Position numbers and translations under genes: made by a program | Part shown: positions 36,111-47,045 of the stretch, one piece after another | Numbering within the stretch: the first letter of the stretch is position 1 | Layout: every line of letters begins with the position of its first letter | The notes under the pieces: model-generated | What the model saw: only the letters and a program-made list of their open reading frames with translations | The model's database searches: none | What the model was told of the DNA's origin: nothing | NCBI GenBank assembly: GCA_963785235.1 | Contig: CAWAUM010000002.1 | Coordinates: forward strand, 257,308-321,307 | Direction of reading: 5' to 3' | DNA: 64,000 nucleotides | Source: an uncultured delta proteobacterium | GTDB lineage: Bacteria; Desulfobacterota; Desulfomonilia; UBA1062

Positions 36111-37289
36111 TTATCCCTCAGCCGCCTGGCGAAGAACATCTGTCACCGTATTAACCGGTATTGTCAGGTGCTTGAATGCCAATTCCCCTATTCTGAACAG
36201 TACGACCTGCCGCAGCATGCACTCGCGTCTCGGCGGCCTCCACGCATCGCCCCAACTCGGCTTCAAGGCGCCGCATGGCCGGCACCAGTGCCGGGCAAAA
36301 CAACTCGCGCATTCCGCGAGATCGTCGGTTTGCACGGGCATCCTCATTCCCTGCGGCAGATGATCGCTCGCAAGAATGTTGCCTGAATAGAATTGCGGAA
36401 ACTTGTAGAGAAGATGGCAGGCGTAGACATCACCATCAGGTCCGACGGCAAAATCACGAATTCCGGCAGGGCGCCGGTCGTCGACGACAGATGCTCCCCC
36501 ACCATCGAGCAAGGGCACAAGGAGTTCGCTGAAGTACACGTCAACAAGGCCATTTCGCCCATACAGCAGCGATTCGAACCACCAGTTGACAGCCTCCAGA
36601 TGGCAATCAAGAAGCCGCTCAAAATGACAGTCGTCGAATGGATACAGTTCCAGCGGTGCCGGGGGATAGGCGGTATGAAAAATGAGCTTCTCTACCCCCA
36701 GGCCTGCCGTGAACCGGAAGAGATCAACAATTGAACATCCCTGATCGATATGCCTGGACGTATATACGGTTTCGATCGCGGTCGGTACCCGGTTGCTAAG
36801 CAATGCCTCTATCGTCGTAACGGCCTCATCGAAGCTGCCCATCCCTTGTGCACTGGGTCTCAACGCATCGTGGATATACTTGGGACCATCGAGGCTGACT
36901 GTCGCAGCGATGTTATGTTCTCTGCAGAATGCCACCATTTCAGGAGCATGTTGAGAGGCGCCGTTCGTCACTATTCCGAAACTCGGCGGCTGCGAGATGA
37001 TTCCCTGGCTGACCATGCGCATGGTCTCATCGACGATCGCCCGCACTGCTGGCATGTTCAGTGTCGGTTCACCTCCGGAAAATTGCAAGAAATTGCACGA
37101 TTCGAAATGTGAAAAAACGCGTCGAACGATATTTCTAGCGGCTTCCTCGCTCATCAACCTTGTCCTGCTTTCTGCATCCGGAAGCCTGACGCAACAGTAA
37201 CTGCAATTGAGGTTGCATGTTTCGGAAAGGAAGAGTGTGAGTTTATCGATCTTATTTATCGATTGCGACCTAGGTATCTGTGAATTCAA
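36111..37289 (-). CDS. Radical SAM protein with SPASM-like C-terminal domain
   Basis: CNLNCSYC, GGEP, TNG, VSLDG..HD..R, GDVYAC and CASCFARHWCRPC...C. Likely TTG start at 37289 after GGAGG (ORF track starts at 37421). Confidence 0.85.
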   Translation of the reverse strand: MNSQIPRSQSINKIDKLTLFLSETCNLNCSYCCVRLPDAESRTRLMSEEAARNIVRRVFSHFESCNFLQFSGGEPTLNMPAVRAIVDETMRMVSQGIISQPPSFGIVTNGASQHAPEMVAFCREHNIAATVSLDGPKYIHDALRPSAQGMGSFDEAVTTIEALLSNRVPTAIETVYTSRHIDQGCSIVDLFRFTAGLGVEKLIFHTAYPPAPLELYPFDDCHFERLLDCHLEAVNWWFESLLYGRNGLVDVYFSELLVPLLDGGGASVVDDRRPAGIRDFAVGPDGDVYACHLLYKFPQFYSGNILASDHLPQGMRMPVQTDDLAECASCFARHWCRPCGALKPSWGDAWRPPRRECMLRQVVLFRIGELAFKHLTIPVNTVTDVLRQAAEG

Positions 37290-37593
37290 GCGATTTTCCC
37301 TCCATGCCACCATGCCTGCACTTTTCGTCGAGATGCAGGCATTCCCGGATACGGAGCGGCTGACCCGTGGCAGCCGCTCCTGCCTGAAAATTGGATCGTA
37401 CGGGAACGATTTCTCCTGCACCTAATGTTCATTTTTCTTCTCCCGGTGCATTAACAAAAAAACGCCGATTGCCGCTATCTGACCAATCCTGCCTGACCTG
37501 TCACACCGACACCTCATCTTTCCTGAATTTTGAGCCGCTCAGGTGAACGAGGGAATCAAGGCGGGGGATTCCCCCTCTCGTTGCCGGAATGGT

Positions 37594-38093: not shown

Positions 38094-39657
38094 ATGGCCG
38101 AACAGTTCCATCTCTCGGACAAGGAATTCTCCCTGTTCTGCGAGGTCACCACTTCATTCCATACTATCCGGGACATGGACGAAATGATCCTGGATATCTT
38201 CAGCAAAATCAAATCCATCCTGAACATCGAGGGTGCATCCATAGCCCTGCACGATGCGGCGGACAAGGAGTTTTATTTTATCCGTACCGTCGGCGAATGT
38301 GCGGGCATGAAAAACACCGACAACGCCGCCCTGCGTTTTCCCGACGATAAAGGCGTTGCCGGCTGGGTAAGGGAGAACAACTGCGCAGCCGTGATTAACG
38401 ACGTCTCACGTGACAAACGTTTTTTCAGCGGTATGGATGTAAAAGGTCACTTCAATACCCAATCGATGATCTGCGTGCCGCTCCAGACCAGGAAAGGATT
38501 TCTGGGAGTCCTGTACGCGTTGAACAAAATCAACGGCCAATTCAGCGAAAGGGAGGAGAAAATTCTGGTGATCCTCTCCGGGACTATCGCAGTTTCCATC
38601 GAAAATGCGAAACTGTATGGCGAACTGAAAGATCACGTCCATTCTCTCGAACGGGAAAAACGGCTCCTGCTGTCCCAGGCGCAGGCCGGCTCAGGCTTCA
38701 AGGAGATCATCGGTTCCAGCCTGCCGATGCGCCGGATGTTCGAGCTCATCGAGAAAGTGATCGACACCCCGACAACGGTCCTGATCCAGGGAGAAACCGG
38801 TACCGGCAAGGAACTTATCGCCAAGGTCATCCATTATAACGGACCGCTGAAAAACAAGCCCTTTGTCGCCGAAAACTGCGGCGCCCTGCCGGAACAGCTG
38901 CTGGAGAGCGAACTGTTCGGCCATGTCAGGGGTGCCTTTACCGGGGCGGTAATGAACAAGAAAGGCCTGTTTGAGATCGCCGACGGCGGCACCATCTTTC
39001 TCGATGAGGTCGGCGAAATGTCGCCGCACATGCAGGTCAAGCTTCTCAGGGTTCTCCAGGAGTGGTCAGTTCAGGCCGGTCGGCGGTAATCACACCCGCC
39101 AGGTCAATGTGCGGCTGATCGCCTCGACCAACCGGGACCTCGCCGAAGAAATCCGCAAGGGAAATTTCCGGGAGGACCTCTACTATCGCATCAATGTCTT
39201 TCAGATCACGCCCCCGCCACTACGGGAGAGGAAAGAGGACATCCTCCTTCTCGCCAGCCATTTTCTCGAAAAATTCGCCGGAAAGACCGGCAGGACGGTT
39301 CCCGTTATTTCTCCCCAGGTCCTGAACCTCCTGATGCGATTCGACTGGCCCGGCAACGTCAGGGAACTTGAAAACGAAATGGAACGGGCCTTGACCATGG
39401 CCGGCAAGGGAAAGATCATCCTGAAGGAGTTCCTCTCAGACAAGATTAGGGGAACAGGGCAGGAAGGAAAGGATAGCAACGCCCCTGCAGAGTTCTCCCG
39501 GACCTTGAAGGATGCTATCCAACTCGTCGAGGCGCGTCTCATCCGGGAGACCCTGGCCTCAACCGGCGGCAACCGATCCAGGACGGCCAAGTCGCTCGGT
39601 ATTTCCAGGCAGGGATTACTCAACAAAATCGCGGCATACAACATCCCCATAGGATAG
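38094..39657 (+). CDS. GAF-AAA+-Fis-HTH sigma54-dependent activator, frameshift near 39,062
   Basis: GAF domain, [28 protein letters not shown] and KLLRVLQE, then [16 protein letters not shown] and HTH in ORF 38971-39657. Confidence 0.9.
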
Positions 39658-39672
39658 AAATCGGTACCGGAT

Positions 39673-41913
39673 ATGAACCACCTCTGGCGTGGGCTCTTGA
39701 TCGGATCACTGATCGCCATTGCAGGAACGGCTCTTTTCTTTTCGCCCTTGGGGCTGAAGGTCGAGGAGGAATTCGGCCTGGCGATGCTGTTCAAGATCCG
39801 GGGGTCGCGTCTTCCTCCCGATGGGGTGGTGATCGTCAACCTTGACCAGGACCCTTCCTCCCGGCTGGGCCTGCCGGAAAATTTCAGCGTATGGCCGCGG
39901 ACTATCCATGCGAGGATGGTCGACAGGCTGAAGAGCCTCGGTGCGGAAGCCATCGCCTTCGACGTTCATTTCGCCGAAGCGAGGAATCCCGCCGATGATC
40001 TCGTCCTCGCCGAATCGATCCGCCGGGCCGGCAACGTCATCCTGTTCGCAGAACTGAAACGGCAAACCATCGACCCCTCTGGCCGCGCCCGGGAAGCAGG
40101 CAAGGTCGATATCGACATCCTTGTTCCTCCGATTCCGCCCCTCGCCGATGCGGCCCTGGCGCTTGCCCCCTTCCCCATCCCCAAACGGCCGGTGCGGATC
40201 AACCAGACCTGGCTGTTCAAGCAGTCCGCCGGAGAGATGCCGACCTTGCCGGTCGTCGTCCTCCAGACCATGGCCGGCAAACACGACGCCTACCTGCAGT
40301 CGCTTCTCGGCAGGAACATGCCCGACCGCATCGACACACCGCCGGCGATCACCCGGCAGGCGGCCGCTCCGGTCGACAACATCCGCACCGCACGGGAGAT
40401 CTTCAAGCAGCGCCCCGAGCTGAAGGCACAGCTTCTCTCCGACCTCGCCGCAGGTCCAACCGCACTGCCCTCGCCCGCCGACCGGGCCCTGCTGCAGGCG
40501 CTGGTGCGAATGTACGCAGGCAGGGACAACATCCACATCAACTATTACGGCCCGCCGGCATCACTCCTCACCTTATCGTACAGTGACATCCTGTCGCCGG
40601 AGAGCTCAGACACCACCGCCCTCGAGGAACGGATCAGAGGCAGGGCGGTATTCATCGGCGCTGCCAGAAAGACCTGGTCCGGCCAGAAGGACGGTTTCTA
40701 CACCGTTTTTTCACAACCGGACGGGCTCGATCTGAGCGGTGTCGAGATCGCGGCGACAATATATGCCAATCTTCTCGAAAATTCCCAGATCCGGCGATCA
40801 GCGCCGCTCTTCAGCGCCGCCCTGCTCGTTGCCTGCAGCCTCGCGGCCTGCCTGATCAGCTTTCTGCTGTCTCCGACGATCGCGGCAATCGCCCTTTCAG
40901 CACTCGTCTTCTGCTACCTTTCCGTGGCGAGTTATTTTTTTGTCCGGCATGGCGTCTGGCCGCCGCTCATCATTCCCCTGGCCATGCAGTTGCCGGCCGC
41001 CATCCTCGCCTCCATCCTCTGCAAATATGTCAGGGCATGCCAGGAAAGGGGAAATGTGCGCAAGGCTCTGCAGTTGTATCTTCCCGACAATGTGGTGAGC
41101 GAACTGACGAGCGACCTTTCGTTCATCAGGACCGGCGACCGGATGGTCTACAGCGCCTGCCTGATCACCGATGCCCAGCACTACACCTCACTCTCGGAAA
41201 AATTGGCCCCTGCAGAAATGAGCAGGTTGATGAAAGACTACTTCGAGCACCTCTTCAGGCCGGTGAACGAATACGACGGACAGGTCTGCAATGTGATCGG
41301 AGATTCAATGCTGGCGCTCTGGCCTTCCGTTCAGCCTCTCGCCGAACAAAGAGCAAAGGCCTGTCAAGCCGCCTTGCAGATACACGCGGCTGTTGACCAG
41401 TTCAACCGCAAGCATCCGGAAACCTCACTGCCGACCAGGATCGGCCTCCATTACGGCTACCTGCTGATGGGCAATATCGGCGCGGAAAGCCATTTCGAAT
41501 ATGCCCCGGTCGGCGATATCGTCAACACGGCATCGCGGATCGAAGGGCTGAACAAGCTGCTGGGCACCCGGATCCTCGCCTCCGAGGCGACGGTTGAAGG
41601 TGTAGCCGGAGTTCTCACCCGCAAACTGGGCATGTTCCTTTTTGCAGGCAAGACCCAACCGATCGCGATCCGCGAGCTGTTGAGCGCCGATGAGGAAGTC
41701 GAGAAGCAACAGGAGACGATTGTGCAGATATTTCCCGAAGCACTGAATGATTTTCAGCAGAGGCACTGGAGTCGGGCGATCGAAGGTTTCAGGCTCTGCA
41801 TCGCCCTGCTGGGCGATGACGGCCCCTCGCGGTTCTACCTGCAGCTCAGCAGATCCTACCGCGAGCAGCCGCCGCCGACAGATTGGGGGGGAACGCTCCT
41901 GGTGGACAAGTGA
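39673..41913 (+). CDS. CHASE2-domain class III adenylate/guanylate cyclase
   Basis: TM, CHASE2 (WPR..HA, AFDVHF, SGVEI.A), three TMs and a cyclase domain (TD, GD, RIGLHYG, GDIVNTASRIEGLNK). Confidence 0.9.
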   Translation: MNHLWRGLLIGSLIAIAGTALFFSPLGLKVEEEFGLAMLFKIRGSRLPPDGVVIVNLDQDPSSRLGLPENFSVWPRTIHARMVDRLKSLGAEAIAFDVHFAEARNPADDLVLAESIRRAGNVILFAELKRQTIDPSGRAREAGKVDIDILVPPIPPLADAALALAPFPIPKRPVRINQTWLFKQSAGEMPTLPVVVLQTMAGKHDAYLQSLLGRNMPDRIDTPPAITRQAAAPVDNIRTAREIFKQRPELKAQLLSDLAAGPTALPSPADRALLQALVRMYAGRDNIHINYYGPPASLLTLSYSDILSPESSDTTALEERIRGRAVFIGAARKTWSGQKDGFYTVFSQPDGLDLSGVEIAATIYANLLENSQIRRSAPLFSAALLVACSLAACLISFLLSPTIAAIALSALVFCYLSVASYFFVRHGVWPPLIIPLAMQLPAAILASILCKYVRACQERGNVRKALQLYLPDNVVSELTSDLSFIRTGDRMVYSACLITDAQHYTSLSEKLAPAEMSRLMKDYFEHLFRPVNEYDGQVCNVIGDSMLALWPSVQPLAEQRAKACQAALQIHAAVDQFNRKHPETSLPTRIGLHYGYLLMGNIGAESHFEYAPVGDIVNTASRIEGLNKLLGTRILASEATVEGVAGVLTRKLGMFLFAGKTQPIAIRELLSADEEVEKQQETIVQIFPEALNDFQQRHWSRAIEGFRLCIALLGDDGPSRFYLQLSRSYREQPPPTDWGGTLLVDK

Positions 41914-42089
41914 CCGAAAATGGGTTGCCGAATGACTGTCGATCAGCAACCCATGGCCGGAAAGGCCTTGTTTCGTGCCATGACCGTTCAGCCGGGGTGG
42001 TCGACGATCTCTAAAGAAATCGTGCGAGTGCACCGCATGGCTCCCGTCATCAACCGTTGTTTTTCATTATCACGGACTGTGCACCGAGT

Positions 42090-42323
42090 TCAGTTGCAGA
42101 TCTGTTTATACCCGGTGCTGGTTTTGATGACGATGCAACCCGGGCTGCCCCAGGCGAACAGCAAGGAGTGACTTGTCGCTTTGTTCAGACTTGCCTCTGA
42201 CAACTTGCGGATTTCCACCTTGTCGCCATGTTTAGAGCCCACTCCCTCGATAGCGACAACGTCGACAAGGTCTCCCGTCACATCATCAAAAATAAGTTCA
42301 ACTTTAAAACTCTCTCTCGGCAT
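42090..42323 (-). CDS. 77-aa protein with C-terminal GSPGC-x12-C motif
   Basis: AAAGGAGG RBS 7 nt before the ATG at 42323; ends WGSPGCIVIKTSTGYKQICN. Confidence 0.7.
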   Translation of the reverse strand: MPRESFKVELIFDDVTGDLVDVVAIEGVGSKHGDKVEIRKLSEASLNKATSHSLLFAWGSPGCIVIKTSTGYKQICN

Positions 42324-42499
42324 CGCATGACCTCCTTTGGCACATAATGATTGAACATCGATAGATGGCTGGACTAACGATACAAACAATTTGATTCCTC
42401 GATCATCCACCTCCTTTCCAAGGTATTGAACTGCCTTGGCTCAGTCGTTCAGCTCACTCCCTTGCTGCCGTGTCTGTAAAGAATTGGCCGGCCTGATTG

Positions 42500-45400
42500 T
42501 CAGAACACTAGTGTCACCCGGAGCAGCAGCAGCTGGTCGGGAGCTATCCGGGGATTGCCGGGATCGGTGTCCTGGAATCTGATCTCCTGATCGAAGAGGT
42601 TTCTTGCCTCCAGCAATACAATTCCGCGACGTTTCGGCAGGCGATAGCCGATACTGCAGTCAACGACCCAGAACTGATCGTCGTCCTGCATGGCCGCGAG
42701 GGTGAGGGGATCGAAGAAATCACCCCGCTGGTCGGCATAGGTCGCGTAAAGACGCAGGAACATCCCTGAGCCATGGAACAAGCTGCCTCCCAACCGCAGC
42801 CGATTTGTTTCAAGTGTCTGGAAATTCTCAGTCCCGACAAACTCATCCCCCCTGTCAAATTCTTCCAGGAAATATTCCATGCTGGTCGAGAGCCATAAGC
42901 GAGGGGTCCAGTAGAGATAGACACGGGCCAGATTTTCCTGCCAATCGGCCTCTCTGCGTTCCGGCAAACCCGATAGATTCTGAGAGTCCAAACTCTCGTA
43001 AGGGACATCCTGGCGGCGGGCGGCGAGTTCCATCCCGCCGAAAAGATTTTCGGAAAAGCCTTGATCCACGGCCCCGCCGTAGATCCAGTTGCCGACTCCC
43101 GCCGCATCATCATAAAATTGATTGAATCCGGCAATCTGAGTAGGTTCGATGGTCTGATCGGAAACAAGGGATCTGGTCAAAACCCGGAAAACGGAAGTCC
43201 GGAACGTTGTTTTCGGCAAGGGATTCCAAGCAAGGCCCAATTTGGGATTGAACTGATCTTTTTCAGACTGCTCGTCGTCAAAGGCATCATAACTCATCCC
43301 GGTGGTGAGAATAAGATTCTTCAAAAGATCGATCTGAGAATAGATGTATGCATTGGCATGCGTGATATCGCTGGAATCCCCCGGCGAGGAATCAGACGCT
43401 ACGGAGAGATCATATATCAGTTCGAAATTCTGCGTGTTTTCAGCTGCAAACAGGCCTGTTCCACCTGTAACGTCAAATACGGCGGACCGGAACTGATGCT
43501 GCACTTCAGCGAGATACCCATCGGTCTGTTCGAAGTAACTCAGCACTCCCCCATCAAATCCGGTTTCAAACCTTTCCTCCAGGTCCTGCACGGTCACTAC
43601 GCCCAGCAGTGCCGAAACAGGAGAGAAATTGTGATGAAAACCGATTCTCCCTGTCTTCCTGTTGGTTTCCTGTTCCTGATCACTGAAAAACCACTGAGGA
43701 TCAAACAGCATTTCCAGATCGCCCGTATCCCTTTCGCTATTCCGTACCTCAGCGAGGACGCTGGTATCGTTGGAAACACGGTACTGGAGATAGGCGTTCT
43801 GGATATCCTGATCCTGGTCGTTATTTTCCCGGAATCCTTCGGCCTGGTAATGAAACTGGCCGAGACTGTAGGAAAATCTGTTCCACACCCCGGACTGAAC
43901 CACCTCGTCGCCGAGAATCTCATTGCCGCCAGCCACACCACTGGCCTGGAGAGCCAGCCTGTTGCGGACAAACAGCGGGGTGTACTCGTTGAACGAGGCC
44001 TCGGCGGGTCCGGCTCCGTCGAGGATGAACAGGCTGCTTTCCGCCATTTGCGGTTGAACAGGGGTAATACTGAGAGGCTGGAGCAACTGCGATTGCAGCA
44101 GTTCGCTGACCCTGGCGATTTCATGTCGAGGAAGGACGCTGTAGGAGTCGGCAAGGAATCGGTGGGCTGAATAGTTGGCCGGATCGATGTTCACCGATTT
44201 CCACCCCTCGACCAGGGCCAGCTGCTGGAAGCCGAGATCACTGTAGATCCGGCCAAGACTGGCGCTGCGGGTGGCCAGATCGTCGTCGAGCAGCAGTCTC
44301 GAGCGATAGACCGCCCGGTTGTCGTTGAGCTCGATCGACCGCTGCAGGTCCCGCAGGGCCTCCACCGGCCGGTTGACGCTCTGCTTGCGCAGGGCGTCGT
44401 AGAACCAGGGGGTAGGGTCGGCCGGGTCGAGGGACTTGGCAATGTCGTACTGCCGCCGGGATTGACTGTCCCGTTTCTCCTCATAGTAGGCCTTGCCCAG
44501 GTAGCTGCGGATCAGGGCGTTGCCGGGATCAAGGGCGGCGGCGATCTCGATCTCGGCCCGCCCCGCTTCCAGGTCGCCATCCCGGATCAAGGCCAGCCCC
44601 AGTCCGAGACGGGCGAGAGGCAGGGCGGGATCGAGAGAAATGGCCTTTCTGAATGCCTCCTGGGCCTTGCCGGTTTCGATACGGGTCAGGTGGGCAAAAC
44701 CGAGGACGGTCTGGATCCGGCCGACATCGGGGTTGAGGGCAGCGGCCTGCCGGGCTGAACTCTCGGCCTTGTCCAGCTCGCCGACCGAGAGCTGGAGTTC
44801 GGCGAGACGGGCCAGAATCTCGGCGCTGTCAGGATTGAATTCTTTCGCCTTCTCGAGGGTCGCCAATGCGCCGGGAAGGTCGAAACGGGACTGCTGGGCA
44901 TACGACAAGGCAAGACCGGCGGCGGCGGAACGGGGATTGATCTCGATCGCCTTTGAGGCAAGGCGCAAGGCCATTTCCGAGTTGTTCTGGACGACCTCGA
45001 TAATGGCCAGCAGGGCAAAGGCCTCACTGCTGGCCGGATCCTTCTCCAGTATTCCGGCGATCAGCTCGCGTGCCTCTGCAACCCTGCCGACAGCGAGATT
45101 ATCGACTGCCTGCAGGAGGGGATCACTATCGCTCTTTTCCTCCCTGACAGCGGGGCGATCGATGATGAACGGGTAATACAGCGTCCACTGCGCGGCATCC
45201 CGGGGCCTGACCACGGTCGTATAACGCGGCGCCATGCCTCTCTCGGCGACGATCGCCTGGCCGGTGGAGACGTCCAACTGCCCCTGCCCGTTGACGGCCC
45301 TGACCTTTCCCTCGAAGACGATGATGACCGTATTTTCGGGTTTGACCTGAACGAGGAACTCTGTACCCTCAACCGCCCCGTTGACATAGGGCGTGGCGAT

Positions 45401-45781
45401 GTCCAGAGAGCGGGGGCGGTGGCTGAAGATATGGAGGATGCCTTTCAGGAGCTTGATGAGGCTGGCTGTTCCGGTCGAGGAAACGCCGAAACTGAGGGTG
45501 CTGTTCTGGTCGACCCGGAGAAGGGATTCGTTGGCCAGGACCACGGCCACCCGCCCATGATTCCCGACCCTCAGGGTATCGCCGGGGCAGAGGCTGTTGT
45601 CTCTCCGAACAGGATCCCAGGTCGACTGCCCGCTGTTCTGAACCTGCGCATCGCCTTGCACGGAAACCAGCCGGCCGGCCGGTTCCCGGCATCGCTCCGC
45701 AGCACCGGCGGCAGAGAAAAAGATATGAATGCCGACAACAACCAACCATGGGACCGAAAATACGCGTGCTCCAATGCTCAT
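42500..45781 (-). CDS. FecR-TPR-beta-barrel outer-membrane receptor (NsrA-like)
   Basis: Signal peptide, FecR domain (LCPGDTLRVG, TPYVNGAVEGTEF), many TPRs, AVYRSRLLLD, and an amphipathic beta-strand C-terminal half ending in F. Confidence 0.85.
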   Translation of the reverse strand: MSIGARVFSVPWLVVVGIHIFFSAAGAAERCREPAGRLVSVQGDAQVQNSGQSTWDPVRRDNSLCPGDTLRVGNHGRVAVVLANESLLRVDQNSTLSFGVSSTGTASLIKLLKGILHIFSHRPRSLDIATPYVNGAVEGTEFLVQVKPENTVIIVFEGKVRAVNGQGQLDVSTGQAIVAERGMAPRYTTVVRPRDAAQWTLYYPFIIDRPAVREEKSDSDPLLQAVDNLAVGRVAEARELIAGILEKDPASSEAFALLAIIEVVQNNSEMALRLASKAIEINPRSAAAGLALSYAQQSRFDLPGALATLEKAKEFNPDSAEILARLAELQLSVGELDKAESSARQAAALNPDVGRIQTVLGFAHLTRIETGKAQEAFRKAISLDPALPLARLGLGLALIRDGDLEAGRAEIEIAAALDPGNALIRSYLGKAYYEEKRDSQSRRQYDIAKSLDPADPTPWFYDALRKQSVNRPVEALRDLQRSIELNDNRAVYRSRLLLDDDLATRSASLGRIYSDLGFQQLALVEGWKSVNIDPANYSAHRFLADSYSVLPRHEIARVSELLQSQLLQPLSITPVQPQMAESSLFILDGAGPAEASFNEYTPLFVRNRLALQASGVAGGNEILGDEVVQSGVWNRFSYSLGQFHYQAEGFRENNDQDQDIQNAYLQYRVSNDTSVLAEVRNSERDTGDLEMLFDPQWFFSDQEQETNRKTGRIGFHHNFSPVSALLGVVTVQDLEERFETGFDGGVLSYFEQTDGYLAEVQHQFRSAVFDVTGGTGLFAAENTQNFELIYDLSVASDSSPGDSSDITHANAYIYSQIDLLKNLILTTGMSYDAFDDEQSEKDQFNPKLGLAWNPLPKTTFRTSVFRVLTRSLVSDQTIEPTQIAGFNQFYDDAAGVGNWIYGGAVDQGFSENLFGGMELAARRQDVPYESLDSQNLSGLPERREADWQENLARVYLYWTPRLWLSTSMEYFLEEFDRGDEFVGTENFQTLETNRLRLGGSLFHGSGMFLRLYATYADQRGDFFDPLTLAAMQDDDQFWVVDCSIGYRLPKRRGIVLLEARNLFDQEIRFQDTDPGNPRIAPDQLLLLRVTLVF

Positions 45782-46142: not shown

Positions 46143-47045
46143 ATGAATATCGGTTTAGCCCTGGGAAGCGGTTCTGCCCGCGGATGGTCGCATATAGGTG
46201 TTATCAGCGCCCTGAGTGATCAGGGCATCGTGCCCGATATTGTTTGCGGCACCTCCGTGGGCTCATTGGTCGGCGCAGCGTATGTTTCAGGTACCATAGA
46301 TAAATTAGAGGAATGGGTGCGGTCACTGACTAAATTTGAGACAGCCAGGTTTTTTGAAATTAATCCTTCATTGAACGGTTTCGTGAATACGGAAAGGCTG
46401 CGCCATTTCTTGTATGAATACGTGGCGAATGATAATGCATTGATAGAAGATCTTGCCAAACGATTTGCCGCCGTCGCGACGGAACTGGAAACCGGCAGGG
46501 AGGTATGGCTGACCAGAGGTCCGGTGCTGGAGGCAGTCTGGTCGTCCATCTCGTTACCCGGGCTCTTTCCGGCCATAAAAAACAATAACAAGTGGCTTGT
46601 GGACGGCGGATTGGTCAATCCGGTTCCCGTTTCGGTCTGTAGAGCGCTGGGCGCGGAGATTGTCATAGCCGTAAATTTGAATGGCGATATTGTCGGAAAA
46701 CATTTCCAGAAGCCGAAAAAATTAATAAACCAGGAAAAAAATCAAGGTGTTGTAGGTAAAATTACAGGATTGGTCGCAGAATATACCGCTTCAATATTTG
46801 CAACGGCGAAGGTTGAAGATCAACCACCGAACTTGTTTGAAGCTATTGCCGGCTCCGTCAATATTACCCAGGACAGAATCACCAGGAGTCGAATGGCTGG
46901 GGACCCGCCGGATATTTTGCTTTCACCGAGGTTGTCCCATATTGGATTATTGGAGTTTTATCGGGCAAATGAAGCTATAAGTGAGGGAAAAGAATGTGTC
47001 CGGAGAATGATGCCGATTATCCAACATGCATTGGGTTTAGACTGA
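46143..47045 (+). CDS. rssA: Patatin-like phospholipase (RssA-like)
   Basis: LGSGSARGWSHIG, GTSVG and VDGGLVNPVP. Confidence 0.85.
   Translation: MNIGLALGSGSARGWSHIGVISALSDQGIVPDIVCGTSVGSLVGAAYVSGTIDKLEEWVRSLTKFETARFFEINPSLNGFVNTERLRHFLYEYVANDNALIEDLAKRFAAVATELETGREVWLTRGPVLEAVWSSISLPGLFPAIKNNNKWLVDGGLVNPVPVSVCRALGAEIVIAVNLNGDIVGKHFQKPKKLINQEKNQGVVGKITGLVAEYTASIFATAKVEDQPPNLFEAIAGSVNITQDRITRSRMAGDPPDILLSPRLSHIGLLEFYRANEAISEGKECVRRMMPIIQHALGLD

Follow-up and report, generated by a model that had tools for sequence, protein, structure and literature searches.

A small protein with a cysteine-bracketed C-terminal hairpin linked to NsrA-like receptors and CHASE2 cyclases

Background

The window analysed in this study is a 64,000-nucleotide stretch of DNA from an uncultured delta proteobacterium (GenBank assembly GCA_963785235.1, contig CAWAUM010000002.1, positions 257,308 to 321,307; genome G000), and it encodes, directly behind a receptor with FecR, TPR and probable barrel parts, a protein of 77 amino acids (aa) that ends in a cysteine-bracketed hairpin. 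The gene for this small protein is tightly coupled to NsrA-like receptors and CHASE2 cyclases, and its product belongs to an undescribed small-protein superfamily with two hairpins and a terminal cysteine pair. We assign a rough probability of 0.5 to the reading that the whole small protein is the cognate protein ligand or modulator of the upstream-encoded receptor and the third part of an NsrA/CyaK-type module. The ligand role, the effect on the cyclase and the side of the membrane involved are what we infer from the analyses below. New in this picture are a fast-evolving partner with a hairpin tail, dedicated to an NsrA/CyaK-type module, and a small-protein family that is unannotated.

NsrA of Sinorhizobium meliloti, as described in two papers, is an outer-membrane receptor whose barrel comprises residues 600-1200 and which, together with the CHASE2 cyclases CyaK, CyaD1 and CyaD2, converts a protein signal, the ribosomal protein uL2 present in any cell extract, into cyclic AMP (cAMP) (PMC7529298, PMC13001267). 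The authors of the first of these proposed that acidic loops at the surface of the barrel recognise uL2, which is basic (PMC7529298). Genetic coupling between FecR and CHASE2 has also been reported for Campylobacterota and Burkholderia (PMC9239204, PMC5192318), and the ligands of CHASE2 sensors are described as generally unknown (PMC5192318). NsrA is the one studied outer-membrane input to CHASE2, and its protein signal is puzzling. A linked, fast-evolving small protein with predicted docking on the barrel would offer a handle on how trans-envelope cyclase systems switch.

Results

The small gene and its family

The minus-strand frame (Table 1) translates into 77 residues, MPRESFKVEL...LLFAWGSPGCIVIKTSTGYKQICN, and a stop codon, the protein ending in WGSPGC-IVIKTSTGYKQI-CN, exactly as claimed by a first-pass annotation that had been made from the sequence alone. 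Several other statements of that annotation were borne out as well. The strong ribosome-binding site is AAGGAGG, 7 nt before the ATG; the DNA is AT-richer than its surroundings (GC 0.445-0.525 in 200-nt windows over 42100-42499, which covers gene and spacer, against about 0.54-0.63 on both flanks); the gene stands directly behind the receptor, beginning 176 nt past its stop on the same strand; and the absence of a Sec signal agrees with the sequence, in which no hydrophobic signal-like stretch is visible. The acidic N-terminal part proved to be only mildly so, with 10 D/E against 7 K/R in residues 1-50 and a net charge of -1 over the full length. A longer frame started by GTG would encode 106 aa; since it is not conserved in the 82%-identical relative at locus L014, the ATG was taken as the start.

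The small open reading frame (ORF) is a real gene under purifying selection. Its comparison with L014 gave a nonsynonymous divergence (dN) of 0.098 and a synonymous divergence (dS) of 0.63, hence a dN/dS of 0.16, and the 38 nucleotide differences are distributed 10/5/23 over the three codon positions; the dN/dS of the receptor gene in the same comparison is 0.19.

Six close homologues with 82-100% identity were found by a word-indexed search. An exhaustive search of 1.84 billion representatives at E <= 0.001 gave 18 matches, namely the metagenome protein P0009, ten proteins of 79-97 aa with 31-50% identity, and seven long repeat proteins (P0012, P0013, P0015, P0018, P0021, P0023 and P0024), four of which were read and which were rejected as spurious. 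No fused form of the small protein was present among the 18 matches. P0009 is 100% identical over only 81% of the query: it agrees over residues 1-62, diverges after G62 and has no hairpin, and this tail looks like a frameshift or sequencing error. A further search with a wide alignment returned its own inputs and one new protein only. The homologues are named 'hypothetical protein' and come from metagenome-assembled genomes labelled Thermodesulfobacteriota, Syntrophobacter or Deltaproteobacteria; judging by these source names, the family has a wide distribution among Syntrophobacter-like and other sulfate-reducer-related lineages.

Comparison with curated resources left the small protein without a family in Pfam, NCBIfam, PADLOC (0 families) and PHROGs (best E 0.052); the best Pfam match, at E 0.015, is below the cut-off and irrelevant. 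The structural model had no match in the PDB at E <= 0.001 with Foldseek, a profile search of the PDB had a best E of 1.1, a wide VIA-align search with both models gave a best Z of 2.7, and one homologue retrieved from the ESM Atlas only unnamed clusters below 0.9. The literature searched, outside which most subscription journals fell, yielded no description of a small protein of this kind.

Within the GSPGC family, represented by the 15-sequence alignment A2, residues G17, S60, P61, C63 and C76 are invariant and H52, G59, T68, G71 and Y72 nearly so; the distant homologues (31-50% identity) retain GSPGC-x12/13-C. In the 44-sequence superfamily alignment A7, C76 is invariant and C63 and G17 are nearly invariant, and G17 is invariant in alignment A4 also. 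The first-pass annotation would have taken a non-conserved cysteine pair as refuting its proposal, but the pair is conserved; the loop, for which that annotation suggested testing variability, is variable across the superfamily but not within the GSPGC family, where T68, G71 and Y72 hardly change. The common architecture in A7 consists of an N-terminal hairpin (h-x-h-x-h-[DN]-x-x-G-x-h-h-x-h), a variable middle, a short strand and the cysteine-bracketed hairpin.

Linkage to receptor and cyclase genes

Genomic context was obtained for the GSPGC homologues at L014 and L015. The order of receptor, small ORF and convergent cyclase at L014 (small protein 82% identical) is that of the window. At L015 (P0011) the small ORF lies 167 nt past a receptor barrel, and the small protein diverges faster than the receptor there (46% against roughly 70% identity, the latter estimated by eye). 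Three metagenome loci, L016-L018, were read as chance motif matches and set aside.

Searches of 60 relatives and of 400 further genomes of the phylum yielded no match to the small protein or its profile, and the receptor barrel is absent from the same 60 relatives; among its kin, the pair is confined to this genome. Sampling was extended from the receptor side to those 400 phylum genomes and to the order of genome G394 (96 genomes). In the phylum sample, the barrel was present in 9 of 400 genomes, with 12 receptor genes at 40-47% identity. Each of the ten loci with upstream DNA (10/10) has a CHASE2 cyclase gene immediately upstream of the receptor in the same orientation, one of them across a 2.3-kb gap. 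Seven of the 12 receptors are followed by an ORF of 69-118 aa with an AGGAG-type Shine-Dalgarno (SD) sequence and a Cys...Cys tail, L035 being atypical; four have no small ORF (three in G252, one in G223), and one is masked by N. In the order of G394, 25 of 96 genomes have the barrel, and 24 of 27 new loci carry a small Cys-ended ORF, 23 of these at 71-265 nt past the receptor stop and one at +583. The order-sample ORFs were chosen with an SD filter, so their SD sequences are not an independent result. The exceptions are L059, with nothing, L065, with a transposase-like gene (by eye), and L067, with a Cys-rich protein.

In total, 31 of the 39 distant receptor loci have a small Cys...Cys-ended ORF downstream, and the linkage to FecR-TPR-barrel receptors that the first-pass annotation had proposed thus extends from L014 and L015 to most of the distant ones. 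The background rate of the pattern C-x6-16-C-x0-6-end among SD-preceded ORFs of 40-140 aa is about 5% (8/148 other ORFs in the window, 31/625 in the loci). Because seven of the 39 loci and S. meliloti nsrA-cyaK have no small ORF, the receptor can work without it.

The tails of the 31 ORFs fall into at least ten sequence types, for example GC[KQ]LINGxW[YI]C, PPGCxFxNGRWYCNY, TNPxCVWVYTPAGWRKVCY and TNPTCYYYWWDGxRxW...PC, and further SPCCxKxGGxxWCWC, NxPCCVxxGxKxVCWPPC and GCVWRLIGGxWxC. The hidden Markov model of the GSPGC family gave no match to the divergent small ORFs, but a profile-profile comparison of A2 with seven divergent ORFs by hhalign aligned 76 columns with a probability of 74.6% and E 2.6e-5.

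The cyclase gene is downstream and convergent in the window and at L014, against upstream and on the same strand at 10/10 distant loci; this clade thus has a local rearrangement. At three loci with a receptor and no small ORF (L037, L038 and L042), genes resembling class-II cAMP phosphodiesterases were seen, accompanied at L037 by a gene for a cyclic-nucleotide-binding protein and at L038 by a GGDEF gene.

Fold and cysteine hairpin

AlphaFold2 models were built from A2 (pLDDT 70) and from A7 (pLDDT 77.6), and the same elements were obtained in both: strands at residues 8-12, 19-24, 54-57, 63-68 and 71-76 and a helix at 38-43. The small protein is accordingly predicted to be one small beta-sheet domain in which the N-terminal part packs with the terminal hairpin.

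The non-hydrogen-bonded cross-strand position is the usual site of a disulfide in a beta-hairpin with a two-residue turn, and cysteine spacings of 4n are then expected. With a two-residue turn at 69-70, C63 and C76 would be non-hydrogen-bonded cross-strand neighbours, and a disulfide between them across the hairpin may be envisaged. The 30 two-Cys tails have spacings of x8 (8), x12 (14), x16 (1), x13 (3), x10 (2) and x14 (2); with x8, x12 or x16, 23 of 30 fit such positions, and x13 might reflect one extra turn residue. The hairpins are net cationic in 39 of 46 sequences.

Disulfide-stapled cationic beta-hairpin peptides such as thanatin, tachyplesin and arenicin are made by eukaryotes, which secrete and process them; some disulfide-stapled hairpin peptides bind outer-membrane or periplasmic beta-proteins by strand pairing. 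The hairpin described here resembles them as a cationic form of 10-18 residues, often rich in aromatic residues and closed by cysteines at the base, a likeness for which no sequence relation is claimed, but it is the tail of a folded bacterial protein of 70-110 aa with no signal peptide or propeptide site.

Predicted docking on the receptor barrel

A complex of receptor residues 215-1093 (40-row alignment A6) with the small protein (A2) was predicted in three runs, this part of the receptor being the one candidate partner covered. The ipSAE values were 0.67, 0.58 and 0.67, and all three controls, two with unrelated partners and one with an unrelated protein replacing the receptor, gave 0.00. 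The ipSAE mark used is reached by 116 of 157 solved complexes and by 2 of 215 mismatched pairs; it is a rough guide, as our own alignments were used. At least 77% of the contacts are shared between runs, and the partner pLDDT is at least 55.

The confident interface on the small protein is limited to residues 64-77. On the receptor it is made up of barrel residues throughout (734-753, 782-786, 806, 836, 871, 893-895, 926-940 and 981-984), so that the multimer check with the barrel suggested by the first-pass annotation turned out in favour of contact. Three contact segments, 730-756, 920-948 and 976-988, are hypervariable across receptors, with insertions and deletions between conserved anchors, and in the window receptor the compared segments contain the acidic residues E736, D743, E751, E929 and D932. 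The C-terminus of outer-membrane barrels is periplasmic, and by a manual strand count, not by coordinates, loops 885-895, 923-945 and 972-989 would be three successive long loops on the cell-surface side. The complex model thus supports binding, without showing it, and points to the Cys hairpin as the receptor-binding part, which would meet variable loops of the barrel.

Export signals and secreted look-alikes

Reading by eye of 46 sequences (31 small ORFs and 15 family members) revealed no signal peptide, lipobox or twin-arginine motif. A hydropathy screen, which is not a dedicated signal-peptide predictor, flagged as credible only two proteins, a second ORF at L050 and a 239-aa ORF at L042. 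The former (L050:3411-3665, plus strand) encodes 84 aa, lies 467 nt past the receptor and has a Sec-type signal peptide; it carries the CCIxxxGxxYCWC motif of the leaderless ORF that precedes it, followed by an 11-residue tail. Given this signal peptide, the motif can be exported. At L042 (7268-7987, minus strand) there is no small leaderless ORF, and the gene after the receptor encodes the secreted Cys-rich protein of 239 aa; at L067, an ORF starting about 150 nt past the receptor stop encodes a Cys-rich protein that has a signal peptide and about 420 aa. Together, these three proteins suggest that the motif may work outside the cytoplasm.

Among the 44 neighbouring ORFs in 13 loci and the 11 window neighbours scanned with Pfam, there is no recurrent maturase, protease or exporter, and no radical SAM family was found in the scanned neighbours of the other loci.

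Relation to NsrA and other FecR-CHASE2 systems

With tblastn, the window receptor matched a 1197-aa 'FecR domain-containing protein' encoded on pSymB of S. meliloti (25% identity over residues 14-454, E 4e-11), and the gene of this protein is directly followed by cyaK with no small ORF between the two. The barrel alone had no tblastn match among the plasmid records. Going by the literature, the pSymB genes are the NsrA-CyaK pair (PMC7529298, PMC13001267). The receptor-cyclase pair of the window is a distant member of the NsrA/CyaK kind, the sequence relation being weak and confined to FecR and TPR.

Both modules have an exported protein of about 1100-1200 aa, with an N-terminal FecR domain and a C-terminal barrel, the latter probable in the window receptor, beside a CHASE2 class III cyclase. 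Unlike NsrA/CyaK, the present module encodes a small protein with the receptor; the NsrA signal, by contrast, comes from other organisms or cell extracts (PMC7529298, PMC13001267). The FecR-CHASE2 systems of Campylobacterota and Burkholderia are alike in that a FecR-domain envelope protein is genetically coupled to a CHASE2 sensor, but the available parts of those papers mention no small Cys-hairpin protein, and FecR, TPR and barrel are fused in the window receptor (PMC9239204, PMC5192318).

Discussion

A proposed whole-protein ligand or modulator and the points against it

In the module envisaged, an outer-membrane FecR-TPR-barrel protein would be paired with an inner-membrane CHASE2 cyclase, and the small protein would be the third component. 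It would bind as a whole protein, not as a cleaved peptide, through its cationic C63-C76 hairpin, and its target would be the hypervariable, acidic and probably surface-side barrel loops of the adjacent receptor. By way of its periplasmic FecR/TPR part, the receptor would signal its state to the CHASE2 domain, and this input would alter cyclic-nucleotide (cNMP) synthesis.

A number of observations speak against this reading. Its main gap is topology, that is, the route by which a leaderless protein would reach the barrel: the loops of the barrel are located beyond the inner membrane, no known export signal is present in the small protein, and none could be seen in the 46 sequences. The total number of cysteines is even in 32 of 46 and odd in 14 of 46, a split that does not clearly mark an exported disulfide protein. 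The contact comes from a single prediction job, in which the alignments were unpaired and the partner pLDDT reached only 56-59, and the side of the membrane assigned to it depends on the hand count of strands. Seven of the 39 distant receptor loci, like S. meliloti nsrA-cyaK, do without the small ORF. The sampled loci are related to one another rather than independent, so that their count does not amount to a statistical test; of the ten distant GSPGC homologues, one (P0011) supplied genomic context and nine (P0010, P0014, P0016, P0017, P0019, P0020, P0022, P0025 and P0026) did not.

The first-pass annotation had offered two roles, a precursor of a cyclic peptide sensed by the receptor, in the manner of a quorum or kin signal, or an accessory factor of the receptor. 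What survives of these is a ligand or modulator acting as a whole protein; a processed precursor is not supported, since no conserved maturase, protease or exporter is found nearby and the N-terminal two thirds are conserved and predicted to fold with the hairpin. A quorum or kin signal is possible, in a protein with no export signal.

Alternative explanations

Least unlikely among the alternatives, but unlikely all the same, is a constitutive subunit, a lid or plug which would close or shape a plug-less barrel and carry no information. In favour of it are a conserved gene order with both genes in the same orientation, the lack of any Plug domain match to the receptor in Pfam, and a hairpin predicted to lie among barrel residues, some of which alternate along strands (734/736/738/740/742 and 747/749/751/753). 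However, one would expect a Sec signal in a permanent envelope subunit, and none of the small proteins has one; the loci without a small ORF, S. meliloti nsrA among them, point the same way, as does a protein that evolves much faster than its receptor at L015. The related idea that strands of the small protein complete an incomplete barrel was rejected, for want of an export signal and with ORF-less receptors being equally long. If the missing export signal is instead taken at face value, the small protein might be a cytoplasmic regulator that acts on the cyclase catalytic domain or on the cNMP-responsive regulator, with the cysteine pair perhaps a redox switch. The cyclase is the sole module part with a cytoplasmic domain and is always adjacent, and the cysteine parity has no strong even bias. 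We nevertheless regard such a regulator as doubtful, given the predicted placement of the hairpin on the barrel with three controls at 0.00, the paralogue of the motif with a signal peptide at L050, and the secreted Cys-rich proteins that L042 and L067 encode in place of the small ORF.

Slam-type TPR-barrel proteins export or display substrates encoded adjacent to them, and the receptor could in the same manner put the small protein on the surface as its cargo. A substrate-like gene immediately downstream, the combination of TPR and barrel, the hairpin predicted inside or on the barrel, and a weak TPR_Slam match (E 0.038; 14.8 bits against a Pfam cut-off of 35.2) would all suit this scheme. 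It is improbable in our judgement, as the small protein carries neither signal peptide nor lipobox for crossing the inner membrane, the barrels of the homologues match PF00593 and not the Slam barrel, and the invariable pairing with a CHASE2 cyclase points to signalling. More improbable still is a precursor like those of bacteriocins or of ribosomally synthesised and post-translationally modified peptides, from which a leader would be cut and a disulfide-cyclised hairpin exported as a signal or antimicrobial. The C-terminal position of the hairpin, its bracketing cysteines, its positive charge and its frequent richness in Trp/Tyr would be in keeping with it, and so would a radical SAM gene 4.7 kb away in the window (36111-37421). 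Its weak points are the lack of a recurrent maturase, leader peptidase or ABC exporter beside the small ORFs of the loci scanned with Pfam, an N-terminal part that is conserved superfamily-wide and predicted in one sheet with the hairpin, and the absence of a conserved double-glycine or other cleavage motif in A7.

Returning to the whole-protein ligand, a more specific version of it would also accommodate the missing export signal, and we hold this version to be quite unlikely, ranking it after the constitutive subunit and ahead of the cytoplasmic regulator. The small protein would be a kin-specific 'cell-death' signal: storage in the cytoplasm would keep it away from its own receptor, and it would be released only on lysis of a sister cell. 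Outside, it would be oxidised to a disulfide-stapled cationic hairpin, which would dock in the hypervariable acidic mouth of the cognate NsrA-like barrel of the survivors, and CHASE2 would fire. That release by lysis would fit the precedent of uL2 is speculation by analogy. If true, this would give the first endogenous ligand for CHASE2 pathways, would explain why NsrA responds to a cytoplasmic protein, uL2, in any cell extract, and would connect a fast co-diversification of hairpin and barrel loops with kin discrimination.

Features of the locus and neighbouring genes

Table 1. Features of the small-gene locus in window coordinates
Feature	Position	Strand	Basis
Small-protein gene, 77 aa (stop included in coordinates)	42090..42323	-	Translation; dN/dS 0.16 against L014; homologues; no curated family
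Codons of C63-C76, Cys-bracketed beta-hairpin CIVIKTSTGYKQIC, net charge +2	42096..42137	-	Cys invariant in A2; AlphaFold2 strands; predicted receptor contact
Codons of residues 7-24, N-terminal beta-hairpin, turn glycine G17	42252..42305	-	AlphaFold2 strands and alignments
Shine-Dalgarno sequence AAGGAGG	42331..42337	-	7 nt ahead of ATG (42323-42321), read from sequence
Weak terminator-like hairpin with T-rich tail	42023..42037	-	5-bp stem, about 55 nt past the small-gene stop
Receptor, 1093 aa: signal-peptide-like N-terminus, FecR, TPR region, probable C-terminal barrel (about 600-1093)	42500..45781	-	Pfam and homologues
CHASE2 and class III nucleotidyl cyclase, 746 aa (convergent with the small gene)	39673..41913	+	CHASE2 E 7.3e-28, Guanylate_cyc E 1.5e-14 (Pfam)
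GAF / sigma-54 activator / HTH_8 regulator, two overlapping ORFs	38094..39657	+	Just upstream of the cyclase

The receptor has a hydrophobic N-terminus, as read from the sequence, and ends in ...RVTLVF. Its FecR domain (PF04773) covers residues 68-161 at E 6.4e-13, and several TPR families were matched. PF00593, the barrel of TonB-dependent receptors, is found on the C-terminal ~490 residues in most of at least 848 receptor homologues; the window receptor itself has no barrel family at E <= 1 in Pfam.

Scans for terminators and sigma-70 promoters gave no more sites than shuffled sequences. The sigma-54 consensus had zero matches upstream of the receptor or the small gene, and its total in the window is below chance. 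The 176-nt spacer between receptor and small gene contains a 6-bp inverted repeat, CCAAGG...CCTTGG, with a 10-nt loop (42418-42439), and after this repeat a second SD-like AAAGGAGG; conservation of the spacer does not extend to L014. A groundwater DNA contig covers 41803-46000 with 193 differences, and two runs labelled RNA-Seq contain small shares of related sequence; neither is evidence on transcription.

The radical SAM gene is on the minus strand. A gene for a patatin-like phospholipase (46143-47045, plus strand) is divergent from the receptor. Neither of the two is recurrent in the other scanned loci.

Across the receptors compared, identity is 33-48% in the barrel, 39-47% in the FecR part and 59-70% in the TPR region, and the TPR region is highly identical in loci without a small ORF also; it probably binds something invariant, perhaps the CHASE2 domain. 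Within its Sigma54_activat domain, the regulator encoded upstream of the cyclase breaks into ORFs 38094-39089 and 38971-39657, through a frameshift, pseudogene formation or an assembly error. This GAF/sigma-54 activator is a possible output regulator of the module, and at L046 an intact homologue of 562 aa (66% identity) is likewise encoded upstream of the cyclase.

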